IMG/VR virus record: IMGVR_UViG_3300045919_000097
Span: 900-64,899 of that record
DNA length: 64,000 nt
Strand: one strand, 5' to 3'
From: a virus
Taxonomy: Duplodnaviria; Caudoviricetes
A model generated the notes under the pieces. It ran no database searches. It saw only the letters and a list, made by a program, of their open reading frames with translations, and was not told the origin of the DNA. Below, piece after piece: positions 5,719-61,405 of this stretch. Position numbers and translations under genes: made by a program. Each line of letters starts with the position of its first letter. Position 1 is the stretch's first letter.

Positions 5719-7038
5719 ATGGCTAATTGGGCTCAACTTATCAAGTCTTCGGGCGGAACTCTTCGCCGCATGGCCGAAGAGATGGAAACACTGCAACTTC
5801 CTGAACAGCTCAAAGGGATCTTCCCAACAGCAACTGGTGAGACCATCCCAGTTTATCATGGTTCTCCACACGCTTTTGACGAGGTCAATTTCACTGACAA
5901 CCTGCGCACAGGTGAAGGTGCAATGGCCTTCGGACCTGGCGGCTACACATCTGGCAACCGACCACTGGCCAAGCACTATGCAGACACGCTGAGCAAAGGC
6001 AAATTCATCCAGCCACGCAGGCCAAGCGGTCCGTTGGGTGACACATTCCTCACAATGCAGAAAGCACTGCGCCTTGATCCTGAAGCAGCTATTGCATACA
6101 TGCAAGGAAAAACTTTCAACAAGGCTGAGACCATTGGGCTGACAAACCCAAATCGAGTCATGCCCACTGGTGAAAAAGCGGTTTACAACTATCGTCCTGG
6201 TGACGACTTGCCTGTATCAACTGGCAATGACGTCAACATTGATGCTTACCGCGAGTGGTTGAAAGAAAAAGGTGTTACCCCTGAGGAACTCAGGCTTCGC
6301 CGCATGGTTCCAGGCAACATGGATGAACTGCTTCGCATTGGTGATCGCCTGGCAGGAGGACCCAGTCCCATTCTGGGCTCAAAGCCAGCAGGTACAAGGG
6401 TATTGCGTGATGGTGTTGGTCCTTTCCGTAACCGGATGGATCTGAATCCTGGTGAAGAATGGATGGGTAATGACACAAGCGTTGTCAACAACCTGCGTGC
6501 AACGGCCGCGGCACAAGCAGGTGTGCCAGGTCCTATGTACAAAGCATCGCTCAGCAACTATTCGCCAGGTACTGGGACAGGTCGTGTCCCGATTGGCGAC
6601 CTTGGTCCTTTGAAGAACTGGGATGGCAAGATTATTCCTGGTAAGCCTGGGCAGCAGATGCCAAGTACAGATCCAAAGATCTACGAAATGGCATTGCACG
6701 CTAACCCTAACCTGCTGCTGTTCCAAGACTATCCGCTTGAAGCCCAGACAGCAATCCACGGTGCACTCAGCCGTCTATACGACATTTCAGGTATCAAGCC
6801 ATTGCCAATGACGGCAAAGGGCGAAGAGCTCATCAAAAAGCTGCCAAACGACGCACGTGGCATGCAGATGATGAACGAAGCAGGTATTCCTGCATCAGCG
6901 TTCTTGCGAGCTGGCCGTAGAGGCGATAGCTCGATCCCATCGGCGTTCAATCCTGACGACTACAACTTTGTCATTCACAATGACGATGCCCTTAAGATTC
7001 TTGATGTCAAGAACAAGAAGAAAGGCGGAACGGTATGA
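5719..7038 (+). CDS. ADP-ribosyltransferase-like protein of the polyvalent-protein type (split ART domain), probable virion cargo
   Basis: VYHGSPHAFD...TGEGAMAFGPGGY...AKHY N-half and GIPASAFL...YNFVIHNDDALKILD C-half resemble ART domains of phage polyvalent proteins; ends KKKGGTV. Confidence 0.65.
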   Translation: MANWAQLIKSSGGTLRRMAEEMETLQLPEQLKGIFPTATGETIPVYHGSPHAFDEVNFTDNLRTGEGAMAFGPGGYTSGNRPLAKHYADTLSKGKFIQPRRPSGPLGDTFLTMQKALRLDPEAAIAYMQGKTFNKAETIGLTNPNRVMPTGEKAVYNYRPGDDLPVSTGNDVNIDAYREWLKEKGVTPEELRLRRMVPGNMDELLRIGDRLAGGPSPILGSKPAGTRVLRDGVGPFRNRMDLNPGEEWMGNDTSVVNNLRATAAAQAGVPGPMYKASLSNYSPGTGTGRVPIGDLGPLKNWDGKIIPGKPGQQMPSTDPKIYEMALHANPNLLLFQDYPLEAQTAIHGALSRLYDISGIKPLPMTAKGEELIKKLPNDARGMQMMNEAGIPASAFLRAGRRGDSSIPSAFNPDDYNFVIHNDDALKILDVKNKKKGGTV

Positions 7039-10000
7039 CCGAGCCCACCGAAAAGCAGATCAAAGCTGGCAATTACCCAAAGGGCCACGTCTATGCCCAT
7101 GGGATGCGCATCAGCATCGAAACGCCTGCTGACGAGTTCCGTAGCGGAACGGACAAAGAAGGCAACGAGTGGTCAAACCGCATGCAGTACGACTACGGAT
7201 ACATCCGTGGCACTGAGGGCAACGACGGTGACCATCTTGACGTGTTCCTGGGTCCTGACTACAAGGACCACCAGTTTCCAGTACACGTAATTGACCAGCA
7301 CGATCCAGATACTGGCAAATTTGACGAGCATAAGGTCATGATGGGCTTTCCTGACAAAAAGTCAGCACTTGATGCTTATCATGCGCATTATCCTGAAGAC
7401 TGGAAGGGCGCTAAAGCCATCACTCCGCTCCATGTCGACGACTTCAAGGACTGGGCACTGAAACCAGGCATCAGGAAGAAGCCTCTGTCTCAGGTCAAAG
7501 GCTATGCTGAAGGCGGTTCTGTCGGCGGGTTCTTGGCTGATCCACAAAGCTGGGACGACATGGGAAAGAACCTTGGAGCCACTGCCAACCGGACTCTTAT
7601 CGGCTTGGCGGGCCTTGGTCCCGACGTCATCAACTGGGGCCTAAAGCAGATACCTAGATCGCGTTCTCTCAGCGACGTTGTTAAAGGCAATACCGATCTT
7701 GGCTGGGGCTCATCTGAGCCAATCGGAGGGACGGACTGGCTCAACCGCAAAGCCAGGGAGCATGGTATCGCCACAAGCAGTGGAAACGAGACGGCAGACG
7801 CCTGGGGCGATGCTGCTTTTGGCCTGGCAACTGCAAGCCCCACAGCACTCATGAATACGCTTGGCAAAGGGGCTCGTGGTGTTGCTCGTGGAGTAGGCCA
7901 GGCGATTGACCAAGGCATGCAAGGCGAGGGTGCTCTCAGCAAGGTACTGGCTCCAGTCCAGCCAGCTTATGCTGTGAAGCCTAAAGGCGGCAACTGGTCT
8001 ACGACACTTGGATCAAACCCTTCGCACCTTACTTTCCATGATATTACTGGAGATTCTGTCGCTACTAATCAATGGCGCGACAAAACACTTGCCAAGTATA
8101 TCAGTACACAACTTGGAACCGCTGACGATCCGTTACTTGCCCTTGAAAAAGAAGGAAGACTCCACGTTGACAAAGACCAGCTTATCGAGTCTGCAATGGA
8201 CGGGCGCTATGGCGAAGCATACGGATATGACGGAGACCTTTTCAAAGGAGATGCTAGACACGAGGAGCTGACAGGAAGGAAGTTGCGCACGCCCTGGGAA
8301 GCAAATGCAGATTCTTCTATGCGGTCACACGGTCCCCAGACAGAAATACAAGCACTCAAGGATCTTGCACACAAGCGTCCGGCAGATGGTCGTTCATGGA
8401 TTGATCACGGTGCAGAAGTCGATCCTGATACTGGCGAAGTCCTGTACCATGAACTTCCTCTCAAGGCTTGGTCTGAAGCCCATCCTGGAAATGCTTACCT
8501 TGCCAAACACCAGTGGCTGGAATCTGCTCCAAGAGGTACAGACATCTGGAACGTGACAAGCCTTGACAACCTTGGTTTCCAGCACATGCTTGATTATTTG
8601 GGGTCTGCTACAGATGCCCATGCTGCACTTGAACACCATGGATCAATTGAGGCTATGCGTACAGCAGCCCAAGGTGCTCTTCCAAATGCTGCAATTCACG
8701 ACCTCATTCCAATGGTTGAGCGCAATCTGCATTTGTCGCCAGAGCAATTGTCGCGTACGTCAGTTGCCGACGCATCAGCAAAAACCTCAGAGTGGAACAA
8801 ACTGCTGAGTTCTAGGAAAGCAACAGAGACTTCTGCACAGGTACCTACGTTCAGGGAATACGAAAATGGTTCCTACTGGAAGTCTATCCCAGACGTGAAC
8901 ACAGACAAAGATGCCCTTTCTTATGCAATGGCACACGGCAGAGATGCCGGATGGTGCACTATGCAGAATGGACTGTGCAGCCTTTATGGCAGCGGAGGAA
9001 GCCGCTTGCACATCCTTCACGATGCTGAAGGCAAGCCAAAAGTCCAGATCATGACAAAAGAAGGTGATTCCACAATGGAAGGTGCTTCTCAAATGTTCCA
9101 TCAGGCACACGGTCGTTTTCCAGGAAGCGTAAACGAACTTGATGAATGGGCAGGTGAAAACGGAATCCGCATCAATGACAGCACTGAACCTGGTAACCCG
9201 TCTATTGCTGAAATCAAAGGGCGCCGTAATGGTAGTCCAGATGCTTCGGATATTCCAGCCATCCAAGACTTTATCAAGACGTATTCACCAAACTGGGATG
9301 ATATTGGTGATTTGCGCAATTCTGGAATGGCAAAGTACCAGGGCAAGTACGCTCCGATAAGAGAAGTCGAAACGCTTCTTAAGCCTCGCATCAAAGAAGC
9401 TCGAGATTTTCTTGATAACCATCCGGCATTTGAGTCACATCGGCAGGCTGAAAAAGATTTCTTAGATTTTCTCCATAGTGGAAACAGCAGGTATGACGAG
9501 CAAGGCACGGCTCAAATGAGGCACCTTGAGCGTGGAGCAGGACAGCCACTGCATCAAAACATGCCGTATACCATGCGTGAAATGAAGGCAATGCTGGACT
9601 ACCCGGCAGATTGGGTCAACGGTAGAGACGAGTCAAAATATGATGTGCTTCAAAAGCACCTTGGAAGAATAGACGCTTTGAAGAGCCTTGTCCAAGATGG
9701 TGCTCATCGTGATGTCCACACATATCCGCCAAAGTTTGCGTCAGGTGGCACAGTTGGTGGCAACAACCTGCAGATTGCACCTCTTGGTGGCTGGGGCTGG
9801 GGTTATATGAATAGCGGTCAACCAGGAACAATGCCTGCGCCTCAGCCTGTACAAGCGCCAGACTTCAGCATTGAGAAGTTCAACCCAGGCGGAAACAGCA
9901 CAAGCATTATCAATCCTGGTGGAGATCACACTGATTTTAGCTCTGGTGCGCGTGGTGCAGATACTGGCATTGCAGGTGGCATTGGAAAGATTGCAAGCAT

Positions 10001-10664
10001 GACTGGTGCATTCAACACCATTGCAAGGGATCCTAACCTTGGTGCTCTTAGCTCTTATGCAGGTGCTATTGCAGGTGCTGCTGACGGCCAGTACGGTGGC
10101 GTTGGTGGACTCATTGGGCGTGCAGCAACTGACGGAAACCCAATTGGAAAGCTTGCAGGTACCTTGCTTGGCGGACTTGTAAGCGACACTCCAATGTCCA
10201 CAAGAGACGCAATGAGCACAGCTGTAGGATTTGTGCCTGGTATTGGAACCGCTTATAGCTTAGGTAACTTCGTTACTGGAGGCGCTCTTGCAGACGCAGC
10301 GTTTGGATCCAATGTAAAACCCACAGAAAGTGGAGGTTACGTACCTGCTCAGCCTGGGTGGTTTGGTAACTTTGGTCTACAATCCACACCAAAGATCGAT
10401 GCCAGCAACCTTGCAGCTTCAATGAACAACCCAGACTATAGCAACGAAGTCCACCTTGCTATTACTCAGCCAAATACTGTCAACACAAACAATATGGACA
10501 ATGAAAAGCCTGCGGCCCCTGTAGCGCCCGCACCAGCACAATCAGACTACAGCAACGAAGGACGTAACTATGGTGGTCCAGGTGGAAATAGTGGAGCTGC
10601 TACAGGCGGCAACAATGGCGATGCATCAGGCGGTGGCGATCGTGGTACCCGCGGCGGATTCTAA
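7035..10664 (+). CDS. large polyvalent protein: inorganic-pyrophosphatase-like (InPase) domain + PcfJ-like domain + Gly-rich tail
   Basis: PTEKQIKAGNYPKGH...YGYIRGTEGNDGDHLDVFLG...FDEHKVMMGF (InPase); GWCT...LHDAEGKPKVQI...IAEIKGRRN (PcfJ-like). Confidence 0.75.
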   Translation: MTEPTEKQIKAGNYPKGHVYAHGMRISIETPADEFRSGTDKEGNEWSNRMQYDYGYIRGTEGNDGDHLDVFLGPDYKDHQFPVHVIDQHDPDTGKFDEHKVMMGFPDKKSALDAYHAHYPEDWKGAKAITPLHVDDFKDWALKPGIRKKPLSQVKGYAEGGSVGGFLADPQSWDDMGKNLGATANRTLIGLAGLGPDVINWGLKQIPRSRSLSDVVKGNTDLGWGSSEPIGGTDWLNRKAREHGIATSSGNETADAWGDAAFGLATASPTALMNTLGKGARGVARGVGQAIDQGMQGEGALSKVLAPVQPAYAVKPKGGNWSTTLGSNPSHLTFHDITGDSVATNQWRDKTLAKYISTQLGTADDPLLALEKEGRLHVDKDQLIESAMDGRYGEAYGYDGDLFKGDARHEELTGRKLRTPWEANADSSMRSHGPQTEIQALKDLAHKRPADGRSWIDHGAEVDPDTGEVLYHELPLKAWSEAHPGNAYLAKHQWLESAPRGTDIWNVTSLDNLGFQHMLDYLGSATDAHAALEHHGSIEAMRTAAQGALPNAAIHDLIPMVERNLHLSPEQLSRTSVADASAKTSEWNKLLSSRKATETSAQVPTFREYENGSYWKSIPDVNTDKDALSYAMAHGRDAGWCTMQNGLCSLYGSGGSRLHILHDAEGKPKVQIMTKEGDSTMEGASQMFHQAHGRFPGSVNELDEWAGENGIRINDSTEPGNPSIAEIKGRRNGSPDASDIPAIQDFIKTYSPNWDDIGDLRNSGMAKYQGKYAPIREVETLLKPRIKEARDFLDNHPAFESHRQAEKDFLDFLHSGNSRYDEQGTAQMRHLERGAGQPLHQNMPYTMREMKAMLDYPADWVNGRDESKYDVLQKHLGRIDALKSLVQDGAHRDVHTYPPKFASGGTVGGNNLQIAPLGGWGWGYMNSGQPGTMPAPQPVQAPDFSIEKFNPGGNSTSIINPGGDHTDFSSGARGADTGIAGGIGKIASMTGAFNTIARDPNLGALSSYAGAIAGAADGQYGGVGGLIGRAATDGNPIGKLAGTLLGGLVSDTPMSTRDAMSTAVGFVPGIGTAYSLGNFVTGGALADAAFGSNVKPTESGGYVPAQPGWFGNFGLQSTPKIDASNLAASMNNPDYSNEVHLAITQPNTVNTNNMDNEKPAAPVAPAPAQSDYSNEGRNYGGPGGNSGAATGGNNGDASGGGDRGTRGGF

Positions 10665-17109: not shown

Positions 17110-17580
17110 ATGTCATTTGCAGACTCGTTAGAAATAACAGATCAACTTCCGGGCGTAAGCCCTTTTTCTTCGACCATTGAAACCGATGGCACGATGGAAG
17201 AGTTCTTCCCCAACGCTGATCCTGGTTTTACCCCGTTTGGGTCTCGTGTTGTGGTGCAATTGCGCCGCGTCAAGAACACAACTAAGAGCGGGATTGTCCT
17301 GGCAACGTCCACCAAAGAGTCTGAAGCCTGGAATACTCAGGTTGCCAAGCTTATCAAGGTGGGTCCGCTTGCATTCAAGAAGCGTGACAGTGCCGAAGAC
17401 TGGCCTGAAGGCGTTTGGGCAACACTTGGCGATTACGTTCGCGTTCCCAGATGGGGCGGTGACCGCTGGTCAGTCAGCATTGCCAAAGACGTTGAGGTCG
17501 TGTTCCTGGTCTTGAATGACCACGAACTCATTGGACGCATTGACGGTGACCCACTGAAGGTACGCGCTTATGTCCTTTAA
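17110..17580 (+). CDS. GroES-like co-chaperonin
   Basis: PFGSRVVVQ...TTKSGIVLA...KVGP...GDYV...LNDHELIG parallels Cpn10. Confidence 0.85.
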   Translation: MSFADSLEITDQLPGVSPFSSTIETDGTMEEFFPNADPGFTPFGSRVVVQLRRVKNTTKSGIVLATSTKESEAWNTQVAKLIKVGPLAFKKRDSAEDWPEGVWATLGDYVRVPRWGGDRWSVSIAKDVEVVFLVLNDHELIGRIDGDPLKVRAYVL

Positions 17581-31570: not shown

Positions 31571-31839
31571 CCGAGCGCGTAATACCAAAAGTTCAGTACA
31601 ACTATGCGGGCCTTGTAAACGCAATGTACGTTGCCAACATTGGCGAAGGCTTGCCCAGACACGAACACGAAACGGCGCATCTGACATTTTGCCTCCACGG
31701 CAGCATTGCAGTGCGCAAAGAAAACTTCAATGGGGTTTTGAAACAGGGTGACATGCCACTCAACCTCAGAGAGAATGAGTGGCACGAAATTGAAGCGCTT
31801 GAAGATGGCACCGTCTTTATTAACCAGTTTGCACAATGA
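31567..31839 (+). CDS. cupin-domain protein
   Basis: GLPRHEH...H...G; WHEIEALEDGTVFINQF. Confidence 0.8.
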   Translation: MTERVIPKVQYNYAGLVNAMYVANIGEGLPRHEHETAHLTFCLHGSIAVRKENFNGVLKQGDMPLNLRENEWHEIEALEDGTVFINQFAQ

Positions 31840-32390
31840 GCCTCGGAAACTATTACTGGAAGTGGGACGAAACAATCCCTAAATCACTGATTGACATGGC
31901 TCTCAGTGAGGCTGAGGCACGTGAAAAGCAAAGCGGTGGAGTCGGCATAGGTTCGGACAACGCGCCGACCATTAACGCCACTGTTAGAAAATCGGAAATC
32001 GCGTTTGAATTATCAACGCACTGGTTGTGCGGCATCGTCGCAAATTACGTACTTCATGCCAATCAACTTGCCGGATGGAACCGGTCTCTGCTGGCCCCCG
32101 AAGTTTTGCAATATGGGGTGTACAGACCCGGCGACTTTTATGACTGGCACATCGATTGTGATTTGGTGTCGCTCAGTGCAACCAATAGAAAACTCTCTGC
32201 CACATTGCTGTTAAGCGACCCGGCAGATTTTGAAGGCGGCGAATTAGAAATTGAAGGCTGCGAGAAAGTAGTTCTCAAGCAGGGTTCGCTTATAGTTTTT
32301 CCATCAATGCTACGGCACCGCGTAACTCCAGTGACCAAGGGTAAACGCATTTCCGCAGTGAGTTGGATTCATGGCCCAACAGCTTGGTAG
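31836..32390 (+). CDS. 2OG-Fe(II) oxygenase (PKHD/prolyl-hydroxylase-like)
   Basis: FYDWHID, RKLS, FEGGEL, VFPS...HRVTPVTKGKRISAVSW. Confidence 0.9.
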   Translation: MSLGNYYWKWDETIPKSLIDMALSEAEAREKQSGGVGIGSDNAPTINATVRKSEIAFELSTHWLCGIVANYVLHANQLAGWNRSLLAPEVLQYGVYRPGDFYDWHIDCDLVSLSATNRKLSATLLLSDPADFEGGELEIEGCEKVVLKQGSLIVFPSMLRHRVTPVTKGKRISAVSWIHGPTAW

Positions 32391-42886: not shown

Positions 42887-44022
42887 GTGGCATTGTAGAT
42901 CTGTCGCGCCTTGCTCGTGAAGGCGGAGGTGCACTGGCCGAAGCCTACTCCAATCTGGGCCGCAAATGGACACCTGAATTGCAAGCCATCCAGAAGCGTG
43001 TTGGTGAGTTCTATCAAGGCCTTACCTCGGCCAACCCTGAGTACTTTGCAACGTCTAAGGAGATCCCCAAAGGCGCTGATCCAGAGATCATGCGGTTGCT
43101 AGCCAAGAAGCATGGGTTTGATCCTGATGAGTTCAAGTATGAACAAGGATCTGTGACGCATCGTCCCACCGGTACATCCATTGGGCCCACTGGTGACACT
43201 CCATTGCTTCTTGCAAAGCAAGCACAAGAAGCCCGTGATAAAGGACAAGAGTCCTTAGCTCGTAGCATCATTGACAAGCTCAGGTTTTCAAAAGTTGCCG
43301 GGATGGGACCATCTAGTGACTTTTTGAATGCAGACTTGATCGGTGCCGATTCAGGTACTGGCATGGCGCGGAAGCTTTATCCATTCTACTCAGATTGGCT
43401 GATGGCCCATCCAGGAACCGGGCTTGAGCAACAAGGTATTACGGGGTCTAACCTTCAGAAGAAGGCCATGTATCAACTTCAGCCATTGGAAAAGTATGGT
43501 GAAGGATTCATGAACCGTAGCGAATTTTCCCCAGGCCAACTTGATTCCAATTGGGGTCAGCACAACAACGTCAGCCGGTTGACTGGTTCAGATCTGCCAA
43601 CTCAAGTTGGTGCACTGAACATGGCTATTGGCAACAACACAAATGCCAAGATCCACACTTTGCTGCAGTCTGCGCACGATGAGCTTGGTTCTCGGCTCTT
43701 AGACACTGGTGCTGATACGCCAGAGTTCAAGGCCCTGCTAGCTAAGCTAGACAGAGCCAAGAACGCTGGACTGACCACAACGTCATTTCCATCGAGCAAC
43801 AATAACTTCCAAGACCTGTCTAGTATCATCAGAGACATCTCAGGAGAGCTCAAGATTGACCAGCCAGTTGGCTACGACAGCCTACGCCGCATGGGCATAA
43901 CTAACGACGTCCTGAGGAACCCAGATATGGTTCCCCAGGATATTCCTAGTGAGCTAACAAAGGGTCTTGCTCGGGCGAGAGGTGGGCTGGTGACCCAGTC
44001 TCGTACACCTCGCGGGCAGTAG
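42883..44022 (+). CDS. hypothetical putative virion cargo protein ending in RARGGLV
   Basis: Last late gene; ATGA-coupled; AGGAG RBS. Confidence 0.65.
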   Translation: MSGIVDLSRLAREGGGALAEAYSNLGRKWTPELQAIQKRVGEFYQGLTSANPEYFATSKEIPKGADPEIMRLLAKKHGFDPDEFKYEQGSVTHRPTGTSIGPTGDTPLLLAKQAQEARDKGQESLARSIIDKLRFSKVAGMGPSSDFLNADLIGADSGTGMARKLYPFYSDWLMAHPGTGLEQQGITGSNLQKKAMYQLQPLEKYGEGFMNRSEFSPGQLDSNWGQHNNVSRLTGSDLPTQVGALNMAIGNNTNAKIHTLLQSAHDELGSRLLDTGADTPEFKALLAKLDRAKNAGLTTTSFPSSNNNFQDLSSIIRDISGELKIDQPVGYDSLRRMGITNDVLRNPDMVPQDIPSELTKGLARARGGLVTQSRTPRGQ

Positions 44023-44821
44023 ACACAGTCCCAAGATGGAGCAAAACTGTCTTGCTTCCGTTGTAACCACCGGCCAAGTTAAACACAAGAGGTGTATCAT
44101 GAGACTTGCAATGCTCAAAGACCGTGTAGTCGCGCTCCTTCCAGTCAACGTCATTCAAGTATCCGGCACCGTACGGGTCATCTTTGTGAGAGTCCGCACC
44201 GGCTTGGTAAATCACAAGATCCCAAGCTTTCTTGCTCAGAGACTCTTTGAGCCGCTCTTGCGCACGTACAAAGTCGCCCGCCGTCGACGACCGGTCCAAA
44301 GAACATTGTTCTAGCCAGTCATTCCATCCATGGTGCTCAATCAGGTCTTGAGTGCCATCACCATAGTGGCCATCACCGTCAACAATCAAGACGTTGGCCA
44401 ATGGGTTCATTGATTTGACCGCAGATGCCGCAAGTGCCAAGCCGTTGAAAGTGCAGTATCCAGCTGAGTGTGCATAGTGAGCATGGTGGAAACCAGACAA
44501 AGGCGCAAAGACTGGTTGACGGGTTTGGGCAGCTACGACTGAGGCATGCGTCAAGATTGAACAAGACATCAGTGAGTGATCGTTGGCAACTGGGCTGAAA
44601 TCCCCGTAACCATTCATGATTTCTCCGCGCATAATGCCACGCACCAGTTCACGGTTATGGATGTTGCACAAAGCTTCAAGCGTTGAGATCTCGCCTTGGA
44701 CGTCTTGTGTAACGTCAAAGATCTTGTCAACGGCCAAGTTTGCCGCCAATTGGAAAACCTTAGAACCTTTTGACAGGTTGGTTGCGCCAGTGATAGCGCG
44801 TGGTGCTTTGTAAATGATCAT
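43946..44821 (-). CDS. histone deacetylase (HDAC)/acetylpolyamine amidohydrolase family Zn-dependent deacylase
   Basis: GFHHA...GYCTFN, LIVDGDGHYGDGT, YQAGADSHKDDP, LAGGY: charge-relay His pair, Zn ligands and catalytic Tyr all present. Confidence 0.9.
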   Translation of the reverse strand: MIIYKAPRAITGATNLSKGSKVFQLAANLAVDKIFDVTQDVQGEISTLEALCNIHNRELVRGIMRGEIMNGYGDFSPVANDHSLMSCSILTHASVVAAQTRQPVFAPLSGFHHAHYAHSAGYCTFNGLALAASAVKSMNPLANVLIVDGDGHYGDGTQDLIEHHGWNDWLEQCSLDRSSTAGDFVRAQERLKESLSKKAWDLVIYQAGADSHKDDPYGAGYLNDVDWKERDYTVFEHCKSHDTPLVFNLAGGYNGSKTVLLHLGTVSTAREVYETGSPAHLSPEQDPLLAH

Positions 44822-45336
44822 AATTGTATTCCAGGAATGTTGATTGTATACCTAAGATCATGTTGATCCCAGGAACGACCGGATCCTTCCCAAAGCGTTC
44901 TGGCTTCTGAATGAGGATACTCCTCAAGGAAAACGATCCGTTGGCATGATGTATTCAGCAGCAGCTTTGTACAGGTCATGCATGGGCTTGCTGTTACGTA
45001 AGCCGTGTGAATTGAATAAACGTCACGGCACTGAAGCAATGCATTCTGTTCAGCATGGATTGCTTGGCATCCATCAAGATTAGTACCACTAGGTGCGTGC
45101 GCAGCTGGGCAAGCATGTTGATAAACCAATCGCCTTGTGTTCTGAGTTGGATGGTCTTCCATCCCAGTTGGTTCATTACAATGAGGTTGCCCAGCAGCAA
45201 CGCCGTTGTACCCAGTAGCAAGCACGTGGCCGCGCTCGTTAAGCAGGACTGCTCCTACATTACGGCGCAGACACGTGGCACGTTCAGCAGTGACCACGGC
45301 TAATGCCATGGCCCATGAGTCACGACTAGGACGCAC
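44818..45336 (-). CDS. dCMP deaminase (ComEB/Dcd-like)
   Basis: TCLRRNVGAV, TGYNG, HAEQNA, SPCMTC; GTG start chosen. Confidence 0.9.
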   Translation of the reverse strand: MRPSRDSWAMALAVVTAERATCLRRNVGAVLLNERGHVLATGYNGVAAGQPHCNEPTGMEDHPTQNTRRLVYQHACPAAHAPSGTNLDGCQAIHAEQNALLQCRDVYSIHTAYVTASPCMTCTKLLLNTSCQRIVFLEEYPHSEARTLWEGSGRSWDQHDLRYTINIPGIQL

Positions 45337-46120
45337 GTTCCCACCACCGTTCTTTATCGCCGGGCGATGTTTCACGAAGCACACGGAGGCACTCCATCAG
45401 AACATCTTCGCTCTTGAACATGACAACCGGTGGCTCAACGCTCTGTGGGAAGTACATGGCCTTGCCATACTTCTCAACAATGGCCGTAGCTTCATCCCAT
45501 TGCTCTTGATAGAGATGAGACGATGCTGCGGTCACATACAACATCCCAGGATGCAACAACGTGCCATACTGTTCGCGGATCCGAGCGCAGATCTTGTATC
45601 CAAGCATTGTGAAGTTAAACACGTCATATGGAAGACCCAGCCATGCGTCAGACGACCTCATGAATACGTGAATATTCAGTTCATTGCCTTTGCGGATGGA
45701 TGCAGTGATTGCCACGGTACAAGGTACATCCTTGGTTGCCGGCGGGTTCTCTTTCCAGATTGTCATGCAAGCTTGGCGTGTATTGACATCGTCAACTAGC
45801 TTCCTGCAAACATAGTCAATCTGGGATTCAATGCGAGGACCGTAGGCACCAAAGAACGACTCACCGTTATCGCTGAAATCAGCAATGCGCTTGTTCCAAG
45901 GTGCAATATCATCCACCTTGTTACTGCCACTGAGGATCCAGTAGGCTTCAGCGGCCATGAACCGGTAACTGAGCTTGCGTTCAGGTATGGTAAGCACTGG
46001 CCACTTCATGTTGACTACCACCCTGTGATGAGGCAGCTCCAGCGTCTGCTTTCCGCGCGGACTTACCTTGTCACCAACAGCCATGATAGCAGCCAGTGTT
46101 TTGATCCATTCAAAGTTCAT
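45326..46120 (-). CDS. thymidylate synthase homologue, dCMP-type (methyl/hydroxymethyl transferase)
   Basis: SPRG, E.YWILSG, GAYGPR, TRQA, KDVPC, MRSSDAWLGLPYD (Asp at ThyA Asn177), SSHLY. Confidence 0.85.
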   Translation of the reverse strand: MNFEWIKTLAAIMAVGDKVSPRGKQTLELPHHRVVVNMKWPVLTIPERKLSYRFMAAEAYWILSGSNKVDDIAPWNKRIADFSDNGESFFGAYGPRIESQIDYVCRKLVDDVNTRQACMTIWKENPPATKDVPCTVAITASIRKGNELNIHVFMRSSDAWLGLPYDVFNFTMLGYKICARIREQYGTLLHPGMLYVTAASSHLYQEQWDEATAIVEKYGKAMYFPQSVEPPVVMFKSEDVLMECLRVLRETSPGDKERWWERAS

Positions 46121-46536
46121 TCGTCTTCATCCTTGATACGTGGATCCGCCAGGAAAAAACCGGCGTAGTTGATGATGTCAAGAGCAGTATCGTTCAATCC
46201 TTCAAAGTTAGAGGCTGAACCATCCATTTCTTTGCGGGTAAGTGATACGAAGCGCTCAGTCTTAGTATGCAGCATCTGTGCATAGCTAATGGTCCCAAAA
46301 GGGAAATAACCAGTGCGGTCAATCGTGTGCGGATCGCTTTGCCCATGGTTGTAGTCCTCACTCTTCTTGATGCAGAGCAGAGCAGCTGTGGCCAAAGCAC
46401 CGGGATGACCTCCGCGGCGCTGGAGTTCCAGCAGTAGCAACTTAGTGCCGTAGCCTTTGAGGTCGTCAATGGCATACTGAAATGTCTCACCGATATGAGA
46501 CACGCCTTCCGGCAATGGTGGTGTCATTCCAGCCAT
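46117..46536 (-). CDS. nucleotide-modification-associated domain 1 (DUF1599-like) protein
   Basis: KKSEDY...K..R...EGLNDTALDIINYA. Confidence 0.75.
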   Translation of the reverse strand: MAGMTPPLPEGVSHIGETFQYAIDDLKGYGTKLLLLELQRRGGHPGALATAALLCIKKSEDYNHGQSDPHTIDRTGYFPFGTISYAQMLHTKTERFVSLTRKEMDGSASNFEGLNDTALDIINYAGFFLADPRIKDEDE

Positions 46537-47024
46537 TACTTTGCCGCCCCATTTTGATCATACTTACCGTAGGCATTCAGCAGAGGCTGATTGTAGAAGG
46601 CGTTGAACTCTGCCCTGTCCAAAATCGCTTCAGTCTGAGGTGGGACCCAGCCAGGAGGCTTGCACACATCAATGTCAATGCCACGGGCAGTCTTGCCAAT
46701 GACTTTGGCCATGTTGGCACGTTGGACGTCCTGCCACAGATCTTCCCAAGGAAGACCCATCTCAATGGCAGTTCCCTTGGCAACGTAGACAAGGTCAATC
46801 AGTGCATCGGCCATGAGAGCCAAGTTGTTGTTGCCCTGAGCTTCCTTGAATTCATCCAGCTCTTCCTGCATGAACCGTATGCGTTCATGGACTCGCTGAG
46901 ACGTCACCAACCGCTGAGTCGGATGATTAGAGATTGGCTGCTTGAACTTCTCGTAAAAAGCGCGGACATCTTCCATCTCGTCATAGAAGAACATCCGCTT
47001 AATGAAGGTAAGTAGTTTTCTCAT
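46536..47024 (-). CDS. MazG-like / all-alpha NTP pyrophosphohydrolase
   Basis: QEELDEF...ADALIDLVYV..G...VQRANMAK...KPPGW.PP. Confidence 0.85.
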   Translation of the reverse strand: MRKLLTFIKRMFFYDEMEDVRAFYEKFKQPISNHPTQRLVTSQRVHERIRFMQEELDEFKEAQGNNNLALMADALIDLVYVAKGTAIEMGLPWEDLWQDVQRANMAKVIGKTARGIDIDVCKPPGWVPPQTEAILDRAEFNAFYNQPLLNAYGKYDQNGAAK

Positions 47025-47779
47025 TTGCGGCAGACCCAAAGGTTGTTCCGGGCATCATCTGGGTAGAGTGGTGCAAAGAGGCAAGAGATTGCATCATTGT
47101 CGTAATATTGTTCCAGCGCCTTACGGACCTCAACAATAGCAGCTTTGGAGGCTCTGTCCGTCTCCGCCTTCCCGATATGCTTGATGTCCATGAAGGTGCC
47201 GTAACGTTTTTCGACTGTGAACCCAGCCTTCTCAGTAGCTTTCTGGAGTTCGGGGACAGTGTACTCGTGAATATGGTTCGCTGCATGGCGCACTCCATCG
47301 TAGCAAGGTGTTGACATCAGCATGATGCCGCCAGGTTTGAGAGCTGCAAAGCAAGCTTTGAGCATCTTTGCTCCGTGCTCTACCTTCATGTGCTCAATGA
47401 CCTCGAAGTGAACCACAATGTCAAAGCCACCAGCGTTTTCACCTTTGAGGAGCTCTTTGTAGCGCTCAACAAAGTTGAATTCACCGAGGAAGTTCAAGCG
47501 TCCAGCATTCGATGGCTTGAGCTTGTTCAGATCAACGCCAGTGTAATGCAAGACATGGGGAGCAGCACCTCCGGTCAGGATTTTGCTCAACGGTTTGTCC
47601 TCACCGCATCCGATTTCAAGGACGCGGTCTTTGACAGTGATGAACCGTCGAGCATAGCTCCAGCGCCAGAAGTGCGCAGAGTAATCACGACCCAGCGTTT
47701 TCCCATGCCCATTGGCGTGGAGCTGAGTCGTGTCGTAGTCGCGATCGTCGCGATTCTTTTCTTTACGGGTGGTAGCCAT
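47021..47779 (-). CDS. class I SAM-dependent methyltransferase (not a canonical DNA MTase)
   Basis: VLEIGCG, YTGVD, FEVIEHM, LKPGG...STP; no PC or DPPY motif. Confidence 0.85.
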   Translation of the reverse strand: MATTRKEKNRDDRDYDTTQLHANGHGKTLGRDYSAHFWRWSYARRFITVKDRVLEIGCGEDKPLSKILTGGAAPHVLHYTGVDLNKLKPSNAGRLNFLGEFNFVERYKELLKGENAGGFDIVVHFEVIEHMKVEHGAKMLKACFAALKPGGIMLMSTPCYDGVRHAANHIHEYTVPELQKATEKAGFTVEKRYGTFMDIKHIGKAETDRASKAAIVEVRKALEQYYDNDAISCLFAPLYPDDARNNLWVCRK

Positions 47780-47816
47780 TATTGGTGGGTCCTCAGCAGA
47801 GTTTTTCCACGCAGGC

Positions 47817-48425
47817 TTACTTGGCGTCGGGCGGATTCATGCCCTTCTTGGTCAGATCCTTACGGTACCAAGCAACGTAGCTGCGCTTGTTGTCGTCCAG
47901 GCCAAACTTGGCTTGTACTTTCTCGAAGATCTTGTTGTCGGTCAGCTTGTCATCCATGATCAATTGCTTGAACAGGGCAGCAGCAGTCTCGGCTGGGACC
48001 TTCTTCTCAGGTGCGCCGTCAGCAGATGCTTTTGCAGCAGTCTTTTTGGCGGCGGGTTTTGCTGCAGCAGACTTTGCGGCAGGCTTTTCCGTTTTAGCAG
48101 CGGACGCTTTTTTGGCAGTTGCCATTTGGATTTCCTTAGGGGTCAGTTTAACAAGGCGGCCGAGTTCTTCCAAGGCCTCCGCGGATGCCCCGACAGACAT
48201 TGCATACTGTGCATAAAGCGCAGCGCAGCGTTCCGGCGGGTAATCAGTAAGCTGTTGGTACAACTCACTGAATGCTTTACTGGGCATTGATTCAACATTG
48301 AAGCCGTTCTCAATGCTCAGCGGAATGAATTCTACAGTGCTTCCACCGCGTAGTGCTAAGCACGTGCGGCGCTGCAGATCTGCACAAACGGCAGGAAATT
48401 TGGTGACTGGAGACAGTTTTGACAT
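47817..48425 (-). CDS. Lys/Ala-rich histone-H1-like protein with C-terminal helical (AWYR) domain; probable internal start at 48125
   Basis: MATAKKASAAKTEKPAAKSAAAKPAAKKTAAK preceded by TAAGGAAATCCAA; C-terminus paralogous to 63577..63987. Confidence 0.7.
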   Translation of the reverse strand: MSKLSPVTKFPAVCADLQRRTCLALRGGSTVEFIPLSIENGFNVESMPSKAFSELYQQLTDYPPERCAALYAQYAMSVGASAEALEELGRLVKLTPKEIQMATAKKASAAKTEKPAAKSAAAKPAAKKTAAKASADGAPEKKVPAETAAALFKQLIMDDKLTDNKIFEKVQAKFGLDDNKRSYVAWYRKDLTKKGMNPPDAK

Positions 48426-48453
48426 TTGGTTCCTCAGCGTTGATGATGATCAT

Positions 48454-48462
48454 ATTGTATCA
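48454..48462 (-). promoter_or_regulatory. extended -10 promoter candidate (TGaTACAAT) for the modification operon
   Basis: TG-N-TACAAT ~30 nt before ATG 48425; -35 poor. Confidence 0.5.
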
Positions 48463-48466
48463 TGAT

Positions 48467-49948
48467 TTATGACCGCTTGCGCATCTTAGCATATTTTTGC
48501 AGTCCACTGAACAACGTCTTCTGGTCCTTGTCTTTCACGTGGAGCATATTCCATACGTACAAATCAATTGTGTTATCAGCAACAAAGACGTGGACAAAGA
48601 CCCGTTTGTTTTTGTTGCCTTGGCGGCGGACCCGGCGGATGAACTGGTCGTACACCTCTCCGTCCCATGTCAACGTGAACCACGCCACGTTGTTGCCGGC
48701 ATCTTGCAGATTCAGTCCGTGGCTCATGCCTTGCGGCTGTGCAAACAGTACATCAATTTCACCGTCATTCCATTTCTTTTCAAGATCTCTGAACTTGCTG
48801 GCTGGGTAGTCACTGGAAAAGACGGCTTTTGGGAATGCTTTGCGCAGACGCTCTTCCTCATGGGTAAACTCATAAGCCACAAGCAGCGGTTGGCCTTGCA
48901 GCTCATCGATGAGGTCTCCAAGTGCCACAATCTTTTCGTCATGCAGCTCCATCCACTCCCTGGACTTTTTTGGAGGCTGGAGCAGGTTAGTAACCTCAGG
49001 CGTCAAGAAGACCGCACCAGAGGCCATCTGACGGCACTTGCCCATGGCAACACCGGCATTCTTTGCTACCACCTTGCCTTCGTCTAGCTCAGCGATCAAC
49101 TTGTCTTCAAGCTTAAGGTAGTTCAGCAAAGCTTTTTCAGGAAGCTCCACACGGATGACGTTCTCTATGAGAGCAGGCATCTCAATGTAGTCTTCGGCAG
49201 CCATCCGCAAAACCAGTGGATTCAGCTTTTCAAAGATGAGTTCATCTGACCCAGGTTTCAAATCCCAGCCAAATCCATTCCATGATGGCGTGAAGTACGT
49301 CTTGTAGAAGTGGGTGATGTACTGTCCAAAGCTCCGGCCTTGGTCCAGCATGTAGGTCTGAGCAAACAAGTGGATGTAACCGTTAGCTGCTGGAGATCCC
49401 GTCAGGCCCCACCGCCTGTGGAACAGTCCAATGACCTGCTTCATTGCTTTGAACCGGTCAGATCCATGGTTTTTGAATGCGGTCAGCTCATCAATGACAA
49501 GTGTCCCAAAGCCAAGCGCCTTGACCCGCTTCATATCAACTGAGACGGCATTCTTTCCAGTCCGTGGCGACTTGACCTTGGTGACGCCAAACAACCATTC
49601 AAGGCCGGCTGGGTTGATGACGTAGATGTCAGCCTTCTCTTTCAGCAGAGCATCCTTGTTGGGTCCATGCAAGACCACAATCTTGAAGTCCTTAAAATCA
49701 AGCCACTTCTCTGCTTCTCCAGGCCACGTAGCATGAGCAACGCGCAGTGGAGCAATGATTAGTGTCTTATCTTCTTTTCCGGCCTTGTACAGTAGCTTCA
49801 AGGCTGCTAGTGTTATTGATGTCTTTCCCAGACCCGGATCTAAGAACAATGCTCCGGCTCCGTGTTCCAGCAGGAATTTGACTGCTTTCTTTTGATAGTC
49901 GTGCGGCTTCCACGGACTTGGCAAGCGTTTGAAGAGCTCTATCTGCAT
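48467..49948 (-). CDS. SNF2-family (SF2) helicase
   Basis: PHDYQ, LFLDPGLGKT, VIDE, LTGSP, HGLNLQ, QFIRRVRRQG. Confidence 0.9.
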   Translation of the reverse strand: MQIELFKRLPSPWKPHDYQKKAVKFLLEHGAGALFLDPGLGKTSITLAALKLLYKAGKEDKTLIIAPLRVAHATWPGEAEKWLDFKDFKIVVLHGPNKDALLKEKADIYVINPAGLEWLFGVTKVKSPRTGKNAVSVDMKRVKALGFGTLVIDELTAFKNHGSDRFKAMKQVIGLFHRRWGLTGSPAANGYIHLFAQTYMLDQGRSFGQYITHFYKTYFTPSWNGFGWDLKPGSDELIFEKLNPLVLRMAAEDYIEMPALIENVIRVELPEKALLNYLKLEDKLIAELDEGKVVAKNAGVAMGKCRQMASGAVFLTPEVTNLLQPPKKSREWMELHDEKIVALGDLIDELQGQPLLVAYEFTHEEERLRKAFPKAVFSSDYPASKFRDLEKKWNDGEIDVLFAQPQGMSHGLNLQDAGNNVAWFTLTWDGEVYDQFIRRVRRQGNKNKRVFVHVFVADNTIDLYVWNMLHVKDKDQKTLFSGLQKYAKMRKRS

Positions 49949-50192: not shown

Positions 50193-50728
50193 TTCAACAC
50201 AACAGTGGGATTATGTGCAAGGATTTCGCGCAAGTGAAGAGCTTGGCTTATTGCATCGTCCAGTGCATTGTGGTACGTGCCAGTGCGGACAATCTTTGGC
50301 ACGTTTGGTGCAGTATTCTTGATGGTGCGATAGCACCGTCCGTTGTATGGGATCCATCCTTGTTTGACTCCAGCCGCTTTGTAGGCAGCTGCAAGAATGG
50401 CATTGTCAAAGTCAGCACCATTGCCCCAAACCTTGACGCCAGTAGCCTGGCTCAGGAACGTGTTGAATTCAGTCAGCACCTGGTTCAAGCTAACGTTGTC
50501 AAGCATGGCATCTGTGCGGACCTTGTTGGCCTCGATGCTTTGCTTGTCCCACCATTTGACCGTATCTGGGTCAATATGCAGGCCAGCTTCAATGCAGTTT
50601 TGAGTATTGACAACTTTGTAAAACCGTTCGCCAAGTTCAGACTCATCAAAAAACACAGCACCAATGCTGAGGATGACGCATCCAGGCACTACGCCAAGCG
50701 TCTCAAGATCTACCATTACATGTTTCAT
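50189..50728 (-). CDS. DEDDh 3'-5' exonuclease (Rv2179c/DUF5051-like)
   Basis: VMVDLET, SIGAV, WGNGADFD, HNALDDA. Confidence 0.9.
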   Translation of the reverse strand: MKHVMVDLETLGVVPGCVILSIGAVFFDESELGERFYKVVNTQNCIEAGLHIDPDTVKWWDKQSIEANKVRTDAMLDNVSLNQVLTEFNTFLSQATGVKVWGNGADFDNAILAAAYKAAGVKQGWIPYNGRCYRTIKNTAPNVPKIVRTGTYHNALDDAISQALHLREILAHNPTVVLK

Positions 50729-51150
50729 TAAATTCCCCTTGTTGATTCACCGACCAGCTCACCAGTGTTGGCACGCACTTGAACCGCACGGTCGTCGTAC
50801 AGTTCAATCATGCCATAGTCCTTGACACAGGTGATGGGCAAGATTTCACCGAGATGCTCTTTGCACCATGCTTGAATGGCAGTAATTGCCAAACCGCAGC
50901 CTTTGATACGTTCAGAAGGCAGGCCAACACCTGGGATAATTGCCCACTCACCATGAAATGCTGTTGGTGCTGCAAAGGCAACTGGAAACACACGGGCAGT
51001 GAAAATTCGCACATCACGGCCCTCAGCACGCCACTTCTTGACTAGTTTAACCATTGGCGCAATGGGCTCACCGCAATGCGACTCATGGACCCACTTGTCA
51101 TAGGTTGCCAGCGTACCATCAAAATCTACTCCAATCCATCCGTGACTCAT
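50728..51150 (-). CDS. HAD-family phosphatase
   Basis: VDFDGTL, FTAR, K, YDDRA. Confidence 0.8.
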   Translation of the reverse strand: MSHGWIGVDFDGTLATYDKWVHESHCGEPIAPMVKLVKKWRAEGRDVRIFTARVFPVAFAAPTAFHGEWAIIPGVGLPSERIKGCGLAITAIQAWCKEHLGEILPITCVKDYGMIELYDDRAVQVRANTGELVGESTRGI

Positions 51151-60228: not shown

Positions 60229-61124
60229 GACATGTCTTCCTTAGCTCTGAACCCTTTGAACACTGGAAACCGTGGAGCATCCTTGCAGCCGACTGGGAAG
60301 TACTTGTAGGTCAGGACTTTTCCAATGAGCTTGGGGTCTCCCCAGATTGCAGCCCTTTGTGCGTCAGTAAAACCTGAGCCAACACCAAACTCCATTCCTT
60401 TGAAAGGTCCATTGATTCCGCGGACTTGGAGAGTACCCATAGTGTTCGTACCAACCATGCCGGACTTTTTGCTTGAGCGTTCAAGCTGGCCAAGAGCGTT
60501 CTTGATAGCCGTGTTACCATTGTGTAGTTTCTCTTCCATGCCTATCACAACAGCTTCGGCATCTGCAAAGCGTTTTAGCTTGATCAATGCTCCTTCGTTG
60601 AGTGTAGACCTGCCTTGCTTGTATTGTGACCCTAGGGACCTCATAATGAGTCCCTCGTACCCTTCTGTCAGGTAATGTTCTTCCAGTTTGAGGAGCTGCT
60701 CGGCACTATAGATGATGTGCTGCTTGACCTGGATGATGTTTTCAGTTCCACACATGCCGGCTAGCTTGACCTCAAGCCTCTGGTCTCTGTCTTGGAACGA
60801 TGCCATGCGGTCGTACAGGTCAAACACGTGGAACTTGAAGTCAGGTTCTCCAGCTTTAGACATGACTGCAGACTGGGTTGTCTGGAACACATCCTTGGCC
60901 GTTGGCGACCCGACAATCAATTCACCGTCCAACCCATCGAGTTTGAGGAACAAACCCAGGCTCTTTTGGATATGGACGTTTGGTATTGGCTTTAGGTTTC
61001 GGCTGACTAACTGGCCATCCTGAACTAAGCACCGTACCCCATCTAATTTCGCCGATACGGCCACGGGGTACGTTAGTTGCTGTGGATCTCTTATAGTTAC
61101 GCCGAGCATTGGCTTGAATTTCAC
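60225..61124 (-). CDS. ATP-dependent DNA ligase
   Basis: KLDGVR, LDGEL, FHVFD, YEGLIMR, YKQGRS, KLK, VGSGF, PRFPVF. Confidence 0.92.
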   Translation of the reverse strand: MKFKPMLGVTIRDPQQLTYPVAVSAKLDGVRCLVQDGQLVSRNLKPIPNVHIQKSLGLFLKLDGLDGELIVGSPTAKDVFQTTQSAVMSKAGEPDFKFHVFDLYDRMASFQDRDQRLEVKLAGMCGTENIIQVKQHIIYSAEQLLKLEEHYLTEGYEGLIMRSLGSQYKQGRSTLNEGALIKLKRFADAEAVVIGMEEKLHNGNTAIKNALGQLERSSKKSGMVGTNTMGTLQVRGINGPFKGMEFGVGSGFTDAQRAAIWGDPKLIGKVLTYKYFPVGCKDAPRFPVFKGFRAKEDMS

Positions 61125-61405
61125 CGGCCCCTCCCTTCGCATTTGGGGCAGCGCATTTCGTGGCGATTGAAGCCTTTGCCGGCTTCGATTTTTCCCGTCC
61201 CATCACAGTTTTTGCATCTTGCTTCATAATCAGTCTCGTACTTCATTGCCGCTTGGTACGCCTTACGGATCTCGGTAAACACCACAACGTTGGCGTCCGG
61301 GTTACTGTCAGGATGGTGCTGCTTGGCAAGCGTCCTCCATCGTGCTTTCAAGAATTCAGCCCCGCATTTTGGGACAACGCCAAGTATGTTGTGGTGTTTC
61401 GTCAT
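61121..61405 (-). CDS. mini DnaJ protein (J-domain + Zn finger)
   Basis: ILGV...HHPD...AY; CKNCDGTG...CPKCEGRG. Confidence 0.85.
   Translation of the reverse strand: MTKHHNILGVVPKCGAEFLKARWRTLAKQHHPDSNPDANVVVFTEIRKAYQAAMKYETDYEARCKNCDGTGKIEAGKGFNRHEMRCPKCEGRGR

Follow-up and report, generated by a model that had tools for sequence, protein, structure and literature searches.

A predicted dCMP hydroxymethylase paired with a dCMP deaminase in a putative cytosine-replacement operon of an uncultured tailed phage

We analysed a 64,000-nt stretch of viral DNA (the window), which comprises positions 900-64899 of a 64,899-nt IMG/VR virus record (IMGVR_UViG_3300045919_000097) that CheckV rates as 100% complete. 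Its source is an uncultured tailed phage, of which the window covers nearly the whole genome. An operon on the minus strand, at 43.9-48.4 kb, couples a homologue of thymidylate synthase (TS) to a deaminase of deoxycytidine monophosphate (dCMP). We propose, with a probability of roughly 0.6, that this operon is a pre-replicative cytosine-replacement module resembling that of T4, in which a MazG-like protein would convert dCTP to dCMP, the TS homologue would convert dCMP to 5-hydroxymethyl-dCMP (5hm-dCMP) and the deaminase would provide dUMP for the TS of the host. The TS homologue is predicted, from its sequence and from a structural model, to be a cytosine-specific pyrimidine 5-hydroxymethylase of the T4 gp42 type (EC 2.1.2.8).

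Results

Active site and fold of the TS homologue

The open reading frame (ORF) at 45326-46120 on the minus strand codes for 264 aa and matches the Pfam family Thymidylat_synt (PF00303, E 3.4e-19). Residues 155-166, coded at 45658-45623, form the motif RSSDAWLGLPYD. In HMMER alignments to solved thymidylate synthases, the last Asp of RSSDAWLGLPYD falls on the Asn of 'LG(L/V)PFNIAS', and a MAFFT alignment places this Asp166 on Asn177 of E. coli ThyA. The exchange Asn177Asp is reported to make TS act on dCMP (PMC8670742). We collected relatives by a protein scan of IMG/VR, which yielded 64 loci, and added four GenBank phage records to give 68 loci; some are near-duplicate contigs, and counts over the 68 loci are therefore not independent. 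The features of the two coupled genes are as follows.

45326..46120, minus strand: TS-fold enzyme of 264 aa, predicted dCMP 5-hydroxymethyltransferase (5hm-dCMP synthase); PF00303, MilA match, AlphaFold2 (AF2) model, Foldseek
45728..45730, minus strand: codon of Asp131 (E. coli Leu143, T4 gp42 Asp145), a residue proposed to activate the substrate water; alignment
45719..45721, minus strand: codon of Cys134, catalytic nucleophile (E. coli Cys146, T4 Cys148); column invariant in 68/68 relatives
45623..45625, minus strand: codon of Asp166 (E. coli Asn177, T4 Asp179), selector of cytosine versus uracil; alignments
44818..45384, minus strand: dCMP deaminase of the T4 Cd / Streptococcus type, likely start GTG 45336; PF00383, 2hvv, 1vq2, T4 Cd

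We compared five diagnostic columns (143/146/147/169/177, E. coli numbering) between the window enzyme and annotated reference enzymes whose products are known.

E. coli ThyA, dTMP: L/C/H/D/N
T4 gp42, 5hm-dCMP: D/C/T/D/D
SPO1 gp29 (dUMP hydroxymethylase), 5hm-dUMP: D/C/N/D/N
Xp12 TS (dCMP methylase), 5-methyl-dCMP (5m-dCMP): N/C/P/D/D
RB69 gp48, 5-hydroxy-dCMP: E/C/T/N/D
Window TS homologue, predicted 5hm-dCMP: D/C/T/D/D (Asp131/Cys134/Thr135/Asp158/Asp166)

The signature of the window enzyme is the same as that of T4 gp42 and of MilA, both of which are hydroxymethylases. An Asp three residues before the catalytic Cys is described as the hydroxymethylase signature and as the activator of the water, and the T4 variant D145N yields no 5hm-dCMP (PMC6400193). 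A further study marks hydroxymethylases by L143D/E and 5-hydroxycytosine synthases by D169N (PMC13326640). Further diagnostic residues of the TS superfamily are kept (Glu58, Tyr93, Arg155 and Asp158, corresponding to E. coli Glu58, Tyr94, Arg166 and Asp169). The columns of Ser167 and Arg126, reported to mark deoxyribose specificity and occupied by Ala and Lys in the ribo-specific MilA (PMC5175136), hold the deoxyribose-type residues Ser156 and Arg115. The C-terminus (…GDKERWWERAS) aligns with neither the TS-like tail of E. coli (…PHPGIKAPVAI) nor that of Xp12 (…YNPKPEVIE); in TS, this tail seals the folate site.

By sequence, the best solved relative is MilA (1.1e-14 versus 5.5e-7 for the best TS), the CMP 5-hydroxymethylase of mildiomycin biosynthesis (PDB 5b6d, 5jnh, 5jp9). 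The AF2 model of the TS homologue has a pLDDT of 96.5. Foldseek searches with this model place MilA at ranks 1-7 (E 5e-19, TM-score 0.77, 264-268 columns), with matches along the whole length including the C-terminal helices; canonical TS follow at about 2e-15 over 229 columns, the TM-scores of MilA and TS matches together spanning 0.7-0.77. MilA is encoded in an antibiotic cluster and prefers ribo-CMP owing to Ala176 and Lys133 (PMC5175136), whereas the window enzyme belongs to a phage DNA-replication operon and carries the deoxy-type residues.

Other assignments were tried and rejected. Canonical ThyA (EC 2.1.1.45) requires Asn177, Leu143 and His147, where the window enzyme has Asp, Asp and Thr, and the C-terminal tail is missing. 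The Xp12-type dCMP methyltransferase differs in having Asn in place of Asp131 and a TS-like tail; hydride transfer needs both a non-acidic residue at 143 and such a tail. For a 5-hydroxy-dCMP synthase of the RB69 gp48 type, Asn169 would be expected at the position of Asp158. The retained Ser156 and Arg115 speak against a ribo-CMP enzyme with the specificity of MilA. A thymidine-hypermodification cluster was also considered for the window, and Pfam scans revealed no 5-hydroxymethyldeoxyuridine (5-hmdU) DNA kinase or amino-acid:DNA transferase there.

Conservation among the relatives

Asp occupies the 177 column in all 68 relatives and is thus not a chance substitution. The combination of Asp143, Thr/Ser147 and Asp169 occurs in 66/68. 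The remaining two have Glu at 143; these are the most distant TS homologues found (L073:7001-7774 and L074:7001-7636), and they show the RB69-like combination Glu143/Asn169/Asp177, which is tied to RB69-type 5-hydroxy-dCMP synthases (PMC13326640). The loci seeded on the TS homologue contain a deaminase gene in 56/68 cases, a MazG-like gene in 60/68 and a methyltransferase gene in 50/68.

The dCMP deaminase and its junction with the TS gene

The deaminase ORF (44818-45384, minus strand) matches PF00383 at 6.9e-20, and its zinc motifs HAE (IHAEQNA) and PCxxC (SPCMTC) are intact. Its PDB matches are 2hvv (9.3e-15) and 1vq2 (7.6e-11), and an alignment to T4 Cd that spans residues 21-160 of 188, including the insert before HAE, shows 29% identity (E 8e-15). 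The PBCV-1-type deaminase 7fh4, reported as the closest structural relative of the 5-methylcytosine-selective enzyme mSCD-B5 (bioRxiv 10.1101/2024.12.05.627091), is matched by the window deaminase at E 0.008 only, compared with 3e-12 for the deaminase of Xp12. These similarities weakly favour a classical enzyme that would convert dCMP to dUMP.

Depending on the start codon, the deaminase gene overlaps the TS stop by 59 nt (GTG 45384) or by 11 nt (GTG 45336), and GTG 45336 is preceded by the purine-rich stretch GGTGGTGGG. The close spacing is conserved: among the 56 relatives with both genes, deaminase homology starts within the TS coding sequence, at its 3' end, in 35 and within 50 nt of it in 5 more.

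The initial annotation of the window had noted a TS homologue with the dCMP-type Asp next to a dCMP deaminase. This observation is borne out by the position of Asp166 on Asn177 and by the overlap of the two genes. It had also described a deaminase beside a dCMP-type enzyme as seemingly paradoxical. The pairing is instead expected, because a cytosine-specific TS homologue and a dCMP deaminase are encoded together in T4 as well as in Xp12: the T4 annotation lists gp42 (dCMP hydroxymethylase), Cd (allosteric dCMP deaminase, activated by HM-dCTP), Td and Frd, and the Xp12 annotation lists pyrophosphohydrolase, TS, deaminase and dihydrofolate reductase (DHFR) in a row. In a recent deaminase study, deaminase genes lay within 3 kb of a TS gene in 104/149 cases on cytosine-modified contigs versus 17/277 on unmodified contigs, and 85% of the deaminase-linked TS genes were predicted to make 5hm-dC or 5m-dC; PRA-PH was among the top co-located domains, and the combination of TS(Asp177), deaminase and PRA-PH is given as a hallmark of cytosine-modified phages (bioRxiv 10.1101/2024.12.05.627091). 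The TS(Asp)-deaminase pairing itself is already explained by T4 biology and this 2024 preprint.

The pyrophosphohydrolase and other genes of the operon

The other genes of the operon are listed below.

46536..47039, minus strand: MazG/PRA-PH-type nucleoside triphosphate pyrophosphohydrolase, putative dCTPase; PF01503, 1.1e-16
46117..46536, minus strand: 139-aa helical protein, counterpart of the C-terminal half of the pyrophosphohydrolase of Xp12, a two-domain protein; similarity to Xp12
47021..47779, minus strand: class I methyltransferase of the small-molecule type, dependent on S-adenosylmethionine (SAM); Methyltransf_23, 1.1e-15
47817..48425, minus strand: 202-aa protein coded just upstream of the methyltransferase, with a histone-H1-like tail rich in Lys and Ala; sequence
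43946..44821, minus strand: compact HDAC/AcuC-like zinc deacetylase, its start overlapping the deaminase stop (ATGA); PF00850, 7e-26

The MazG-like protein is 33% identical to the N-terminal half of a 257-aa Xp12 protein coded directly upstream of the Xp12 TS, and the 139-aa protein is 45% identical over 71 residues to residues 179-244 of the same protein. By sequence, the two window proteins correspond to the two halves of this single Xp12 protein. The 139-aa protein also matches the C-terminal half of phrog_18404, and it has a sub-threshold match (E 0.06) to DUF1599, 'nucleotide modification associated domain 1'. Between the MazG-like and TS genes, 11/68 loci have the 139-aa gene and 53/68 have a 327-aa P-loop kinase-like gene (for example L002:6004-6987, of the AXL3 gp29 type). 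The two genes are mutually exclusive in the 68 TS-seeded loci. For the AXL3 gp29 protein, tblastn detected no relative in the window, the best match reaching E 0.008 over 34 residues, and AXL3 gp29 is not similar to the 139-aa protein either.

Cultured relatives and restriction of AXL3 DNA

The TS homologue of Stenotrophomonas phage AXL3 is 47% identical to that of the window. In AXL3, Pseudoxanthomonas phage PW916 and uncultured relatives, the methyltransferase (73% identity) and the deaminase (61-62% identity) are found in the gene order of the window, the full order in the AXL3/PW916 group being methyltransferase, pyrophosphohydrolase, kinase-like gene, TS and deaminase. At the DNA level, a megablast search of 43900-48500 against GenBank phages gave no match. 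The AXL3/PW916 group differs from the window phage in that it has the 327-aa kinase-like gene in place of the 139-aa gene and has no HDAC-like gene; AXL3 in addition carries ThyX (gp50; PMC7504290), which the window phage does not. The AXL3 and PW916 records label the enzyme as thymidylate synthase or dUMP hydroxymethyltransferase, whereas we predict a dCMP hydroxymethylase for the window.

According to the AXL3 study, 35 of 37 restriction enzymes did not cut AXL3 DNA, and only TasI and Tru1I, with A/T-only sites, did; KpnI and Eam1105I were part of this panel and showed no cutting (PMC7504290). The same two enzymes partly cut the DNA of AXL1, an Xp12-like phage from the same laboratory that is presumed to contain 5-methylcytosine (5mC; PMC9206674). 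The restriction pattern of AXL3 fits a cytosine modification other than plain 5mC.

Thymidylate source and genome content

Besides the terminase, capsid and tail proteins coded on the plus strand, the window contains a minus-strand replication block with a family-A DNA polymerase, SNF2 helicase, ligase, primase and nucleases. It has a single PF00303 gene, and a search for ThyX found none. Scanning 70 ORFs against Pfam revealed no DHFR, deoxynucleoside monophosphate (dNMP) kinase or glycosyltransferase, the DHFR family PF00186 not having been searched on its own. Hydroxymethylation is reported to regenerate tetrahydrofolate (PMC6400193), so that no DHFR would be needed; DHFR is described in all eight Xp12-type 5mC phages (PMC9206674), where it would recycle dihydrofolate.

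We searched for a second TS in 50 of the 64 IMG/VR loci, setting aside 14 (near-duplicates, short contigs and the two most distant loci); 33 of the 50 are at least 90% complete. Among these 33, ThyX was found in 6 (one match being a 32-residue fragment) and a canonical ThyA in 1 (E 3.9e-119). In relatives with ThyX or ThyA, the Asp enzyme is not the source of dTMP. In genomes that do carry a true thymidylate synthase, the dUMP made by the deaminase has an obvious consumer. The window phage has no dUMP-methylating enzyme, and consequently either host ThyA or ThyX must serve, or a different route applies.

Discussion

Proposed pathway

The proposed pathway starts with the MazG-like pyrophosphohydrolase, which would return dCTP, and perhaps dCDP, to dCMP. 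On the TS-fold enzyme, Cys134 and methylene-tetrahydrofolate would add a one-carbon unit at C5 of dCMP, Asp166 selecting cytosine. Judged from the residues, the fold and the relatives, water activated by Asp131 would then hydrate the exocyclic methylene to give 5hm-dCMP rather than 5m-dCMP. The T4-Cd-like deaminase would divert part of the dCMP to dUMP, which would both remove the canonical cytosine precursor and feed thymidylate synthesis, with host ThyA or ThyX methylating the dUMP. Tight coupling of the TS and deaminase genes would share dCMP between the modified-cytosine and thymine branches. Kinases not identifiable in the genome would take 5hm-dCMP to the triphosphate, which the family-A polymerase of the phage would incorporate, and the linked SAM methyltransferase probably modifies the base further. 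The fallback of the initial annotation, that the DNA contains 5mC or 5hmC, is the best-supported reading.

We compared this module with the T4 pathway set (gp56 dCTPase, gp42, Cd, gp1 dNMP kinase, Td and Frd). Both include (i) a cytosine-specific TS-fold enzyme with all five gp42 signature residues, (ii) a Cd-like deaminase and (iii) an all-alpha nucleoside triphosphate pyrophosphohydrolase, which in the window phage is part of the same operon, and in both dCMP would be shared between the modified-cytosine and thymine branches. Unlike T4, the window phage lacks a thymidylate synthase of its own as well as DHFR, dNMP kinase and glucosyltransferase genes; its genes form one tight operon, whereas those of T4 are scattered, and the module always comes with a SAM methyltransferase. 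Xp12 shares with the window the gene order, homologous pyrophosphohydrolase domains and Asp177, but its TS has Asn143, Pro147 and a TS-like tail and is about 30% identical to the window TS, its deaminase belongs to the compact PBCV-1 type, and it has DHFR.

Several observations weigh against a T4-like module. The T4 signature Ser94-x-Tyr96 is not found, as Ser94 of gp42 is replaced by Gly in the window enzyme and in 66/68 relatives; SPO1 gp29, a proven hydroxymethylase, likewise has no Ser/Thr two residues before the conserved Tyr. In BLASTP, the TS homologue gives no significant match to gp42 (E 0.5) and better ones to SPO1 gp29 (8e-21) and the Xp12 TS (5e-19), so that the hydroxymethylase assignment draws on a few residues, the MilA match and the missing tail. 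The MazG and 139-aa pair and the gene order resemble the module of the 5mC phage Xp12. T4 needs gp1 to phosphorylate 5hm-dCMP, and the window genome has no recognisable dNMP kinase; 53/68 relatives have the kinase-like gene. The lack of a thymidylate synthase of its own also fits a route that makes thymine from modified cytosine. For AXL3, a guanine modification would likewise block the enzymes that failed to cut. Finally, the likeness to Cd does not settle the substrate of the deaminase, because selectivity for 5mC is polyphyletic among dCMP deaminases (bioRxiv 10.1101/2024.12.05.627091).

Alternative pathways

The alternative that survives best, although we consider it unlikely, is an Xp12-type 5mC pathway. 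Here the TS homologue would produce 5m-dCMP, and a deaminase acting on 5-methyl-dC nucleotides would yield thymidine nucleotides without dUMP, so that one TS would supply both modified cytosine and thymine. Such a mechanism has been demonstrated for mSCD-B5, which deaminated 99% of 5m-dCTP in 30 min versus 4% of dCTP, and some deaminases in that preprint prefer 5m-dCTP and are proposed as the source of dTTP in 5mC phages (bioRxiv 10.1101/2024.12.05.627091); the window deaminase, however, is Cd-like rather than Xp12/PBCV-1-like. That the genome is complete, has a single TS-family gene and lacks both ThyX and a recognisable dNMP kinase would suit this pathway, but 7 of the 33 near-complete relatives carry ThyX or canonical ThyA as well. 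While the order pyrophosphohydrolase, TS(Asp), deaminase is that of Xp12 and the MazG-like and 139-aa proteins are a split form of its protein, the Asp143 of 66/68 relatives stands where Xp12 has Asn, the D145N exchange in T4 abolishes hydroxymethylation (PMC6400193), the TS-like tail is absent and the Pfam scans contain no DHFR, a gene reported for every one of the eight Xp12-type phages (PMC9206674). AXL3 DNA, moreover, resists the partial cutters of AXL1 DNA (PMC7504290, PMC9206674).

This pathway corresponds in part to the order suggested in the initial annotation, dCMP to (hydroxy)methyl-dCMP followed by deamination. The route has been proposed and partly shown for 5mC phages at the triphosphate level (bioRxiv 10.1101/2024.12.05.627091) and is thus sound but not new. 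For the window gene it is disfavoured by the Asp131 hydroxymethylase signature, by the Cd-like deaminase and because deamination of 5hm-dC would give 5hm-dU and not dT.

A second alternative, which we regard as quite unlikely, combines the hydroxymethylase with a deaminase that accepts modified cytosine. Part of the 5hm-dC nucleotides would then become 5hm-dU nucleotides, and the DNA would contain both 5-hydroxymethylcytosine (hmC) and 5-hydroxymethyluracil (hmU), or mainly hmU. The overlap of the TS and deaminase genes and the lack of a thymidylate synthase in the phage are compatible with it, although AXL3 has ThyX (PMC7504290). In the preprint, mSCD-B5 deaminated 65% of 5hm-dCTP in 30 min, and 5hm-dU was obtained in vivo with seven environmental deaminases, yet all seven were linked to TS homologues predicted as 5m-dCMP makers, not to the hydroxymethyl type (bioRxiv 10.1101/2024.12.05.627091). 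The 5-hmdU DNA kinase and amino-acid:DNA transferase missing from the Pfam scans are both readily detected in an hmU-type locus (L146, see below), a second pyrophosphohydrolase able to remove dTTP was not found, and the hmU-type relatives have an Asn177 enzyme.

A conventional thymidylate synthase that receives dUMP from the deaminase (dCMP to dUMP to dTMP), as implied by the database annotations of AXL3, PW916 and Pelagibacter phages and by the pairing of deaminase and TS as the textbook dTMP route (PMC7504290), is very improbable given the exchange of Asn177 for Asp in 68/68 relatives, which is reported to turn TS to dCMP (PMC8670742), the exchanges of Leu143 for Asp and His147 for Thr, the absent tail, the separate ThyX or ThyA in AXL3 and 6 other relatives, and the restriction resistance of AXL3 DNA (PMC7504290).

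The TS homologue belongs to a large clade, made up of the 64 IMG/VR loci and of cultured Stenotrophomonas, Pseudoxanthomonas and Pelagibacter phages, whose members are mostly labelled 'thymidylate synthase' in the databases. Membership of this clade is almost certainly a sign that the cytosine of a phage is fully modified. Modified cytosine bears on the restriction and CRISPR sensitivity of these phages, on their sequencing and cloning and on the therapeutic use of phages such as AXL3.

The methyltransferase and further modification

The methyltransferase has over 1000 homologues, the best 120 of which are 73-93% identical and mostly on phage-sized contigs. Its identity across phages is 70-93%, whereas the TS enzymes of the same phages share only about 50%. 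We seeded 66 IMG/VR loci on the methyltransferase, many of whose contigs are shared with the TS-seeded set. A TS homologue is present in 60/60 of the methyltransferase-seeded loci with at least 3 kb downstream. The 202-aa protein, for which Pfam gives only a weak match to DUF6465, is kept upstream of the methyltransferase in 63/66. The AF2 model of the methyltransferase has a pLDDT of 79, and its top Foldseek matches are RebM, MitM, UbiG and PMT (phosphoethanolamine methyltransferases), with no DNA methyltransferase among these top matches.

It is possible, if doubtful, that the operon makes a so far undescribed cytosine derivative beyond 5hmC. Possible targets of the methyltransferase are the new 5-hydroxymethyl group or another position of hm-dC, at the level of nucleotides or of DNA, and the product could be, for example, 5-methoxymethylcytosine. 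In the window, where the 139-aa gene stands in for the kinase-like gene and an HDAC-like gene is coupled to the deaminase, the chemistry may therefore differ again from that of AXL3. A full-text literature search returned no description of methylated hydroxymethylcytosine in phage DNA and no methyltransferase linked to a dCMP hydroxymethylase; PMC13326640 contains no mention of a methyltransferase, and the eLife MetaGPA text mentions neither methyltransferase, PRA-PH nor deacetylase.

The HDAC-like deacetylase

In the HDAC-like protein, the HH dyad, DGDGHYGDGT, GADSHKDDP and GGY align with solved HDACs. It belongs to a compact family (about 280-300 aa) with 678 homologues, mostly on phage-sized contigs, and it is present in only 2/68 TS-seeded loci. 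Seven records of cultured phages match the protein, none over 80% of the query, so that no close relative was found among them; the PHROG families gave no match, and an IMG/VR scan with the single protein as query confirmed no relative. An alignment-based IMG/VR scan with the family yielded 203 relatives, of which the best 80 were kept. Among these 80, the 8 closest loci all have the gene about 2 kb downstream of a TS-family gene: 3 are modules like that of the window and 5 have an Asn177 enzyme like SPO1 gp29, that is, of the dUMP-hydroxymethylase type. In one locus (L146, 347-7813), the order is amino-acid:DNA transferase, GNAT acetyltransferase, FAD oxidoreductase, 5-hmdU DNA kinase, TS homologue, HD nucleotidase and deacetylase, which by our comparison with PMC8989533 identifies a probable thymidine-hypermodification cluster of the PaMx11 kind. 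The HDAC-like gene thus ends both cytosine-type and thymine-type modification operons in related phages, a pattern that may stem from shared synteny or from a function that serves both operon types.

Further genes in the window

A 140-aa protein with an N-terminal HAD-phosphatase-like DFDGTL motif is coded at 50728-51150 on the minus strand, between an exonuclease and a PD-(D/E)XK nuclease. It could, from this motif, be a nucleotidase or 3'-phosphatase; its PHROG matches are weak only, and tblastn found no counterpart in the 68 TS-seeded loci. A 184-aa 2-oxoglutarate-Fe(II) oxygenase (PF13640, 1.7e-16), with no TET/JBP-family match, lies amid the tail genes at 31836-32390 (plus strand). The region 5719-10664 (plus strand) codes for two large head-module proteins with domains of the kind usual in 'polyvalent' phage proteins. 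One, of 1209 aa, has an N-terminal InPase domain (1.5e-52) and DarB-like PHROG matches; the other, of 439 aa, precedes it and has a sub-threshold ART-PolyVal match. Chaperone-like genes comprise a GroES-like Cpn10 domain protein at 17110-17580 (plus strand) and a small DnaJ-like protein with a zinc-finger motif at 61121-61405 (minus strand); a DnaJ-like gene is also reported in AXL3 (PMC7504290).

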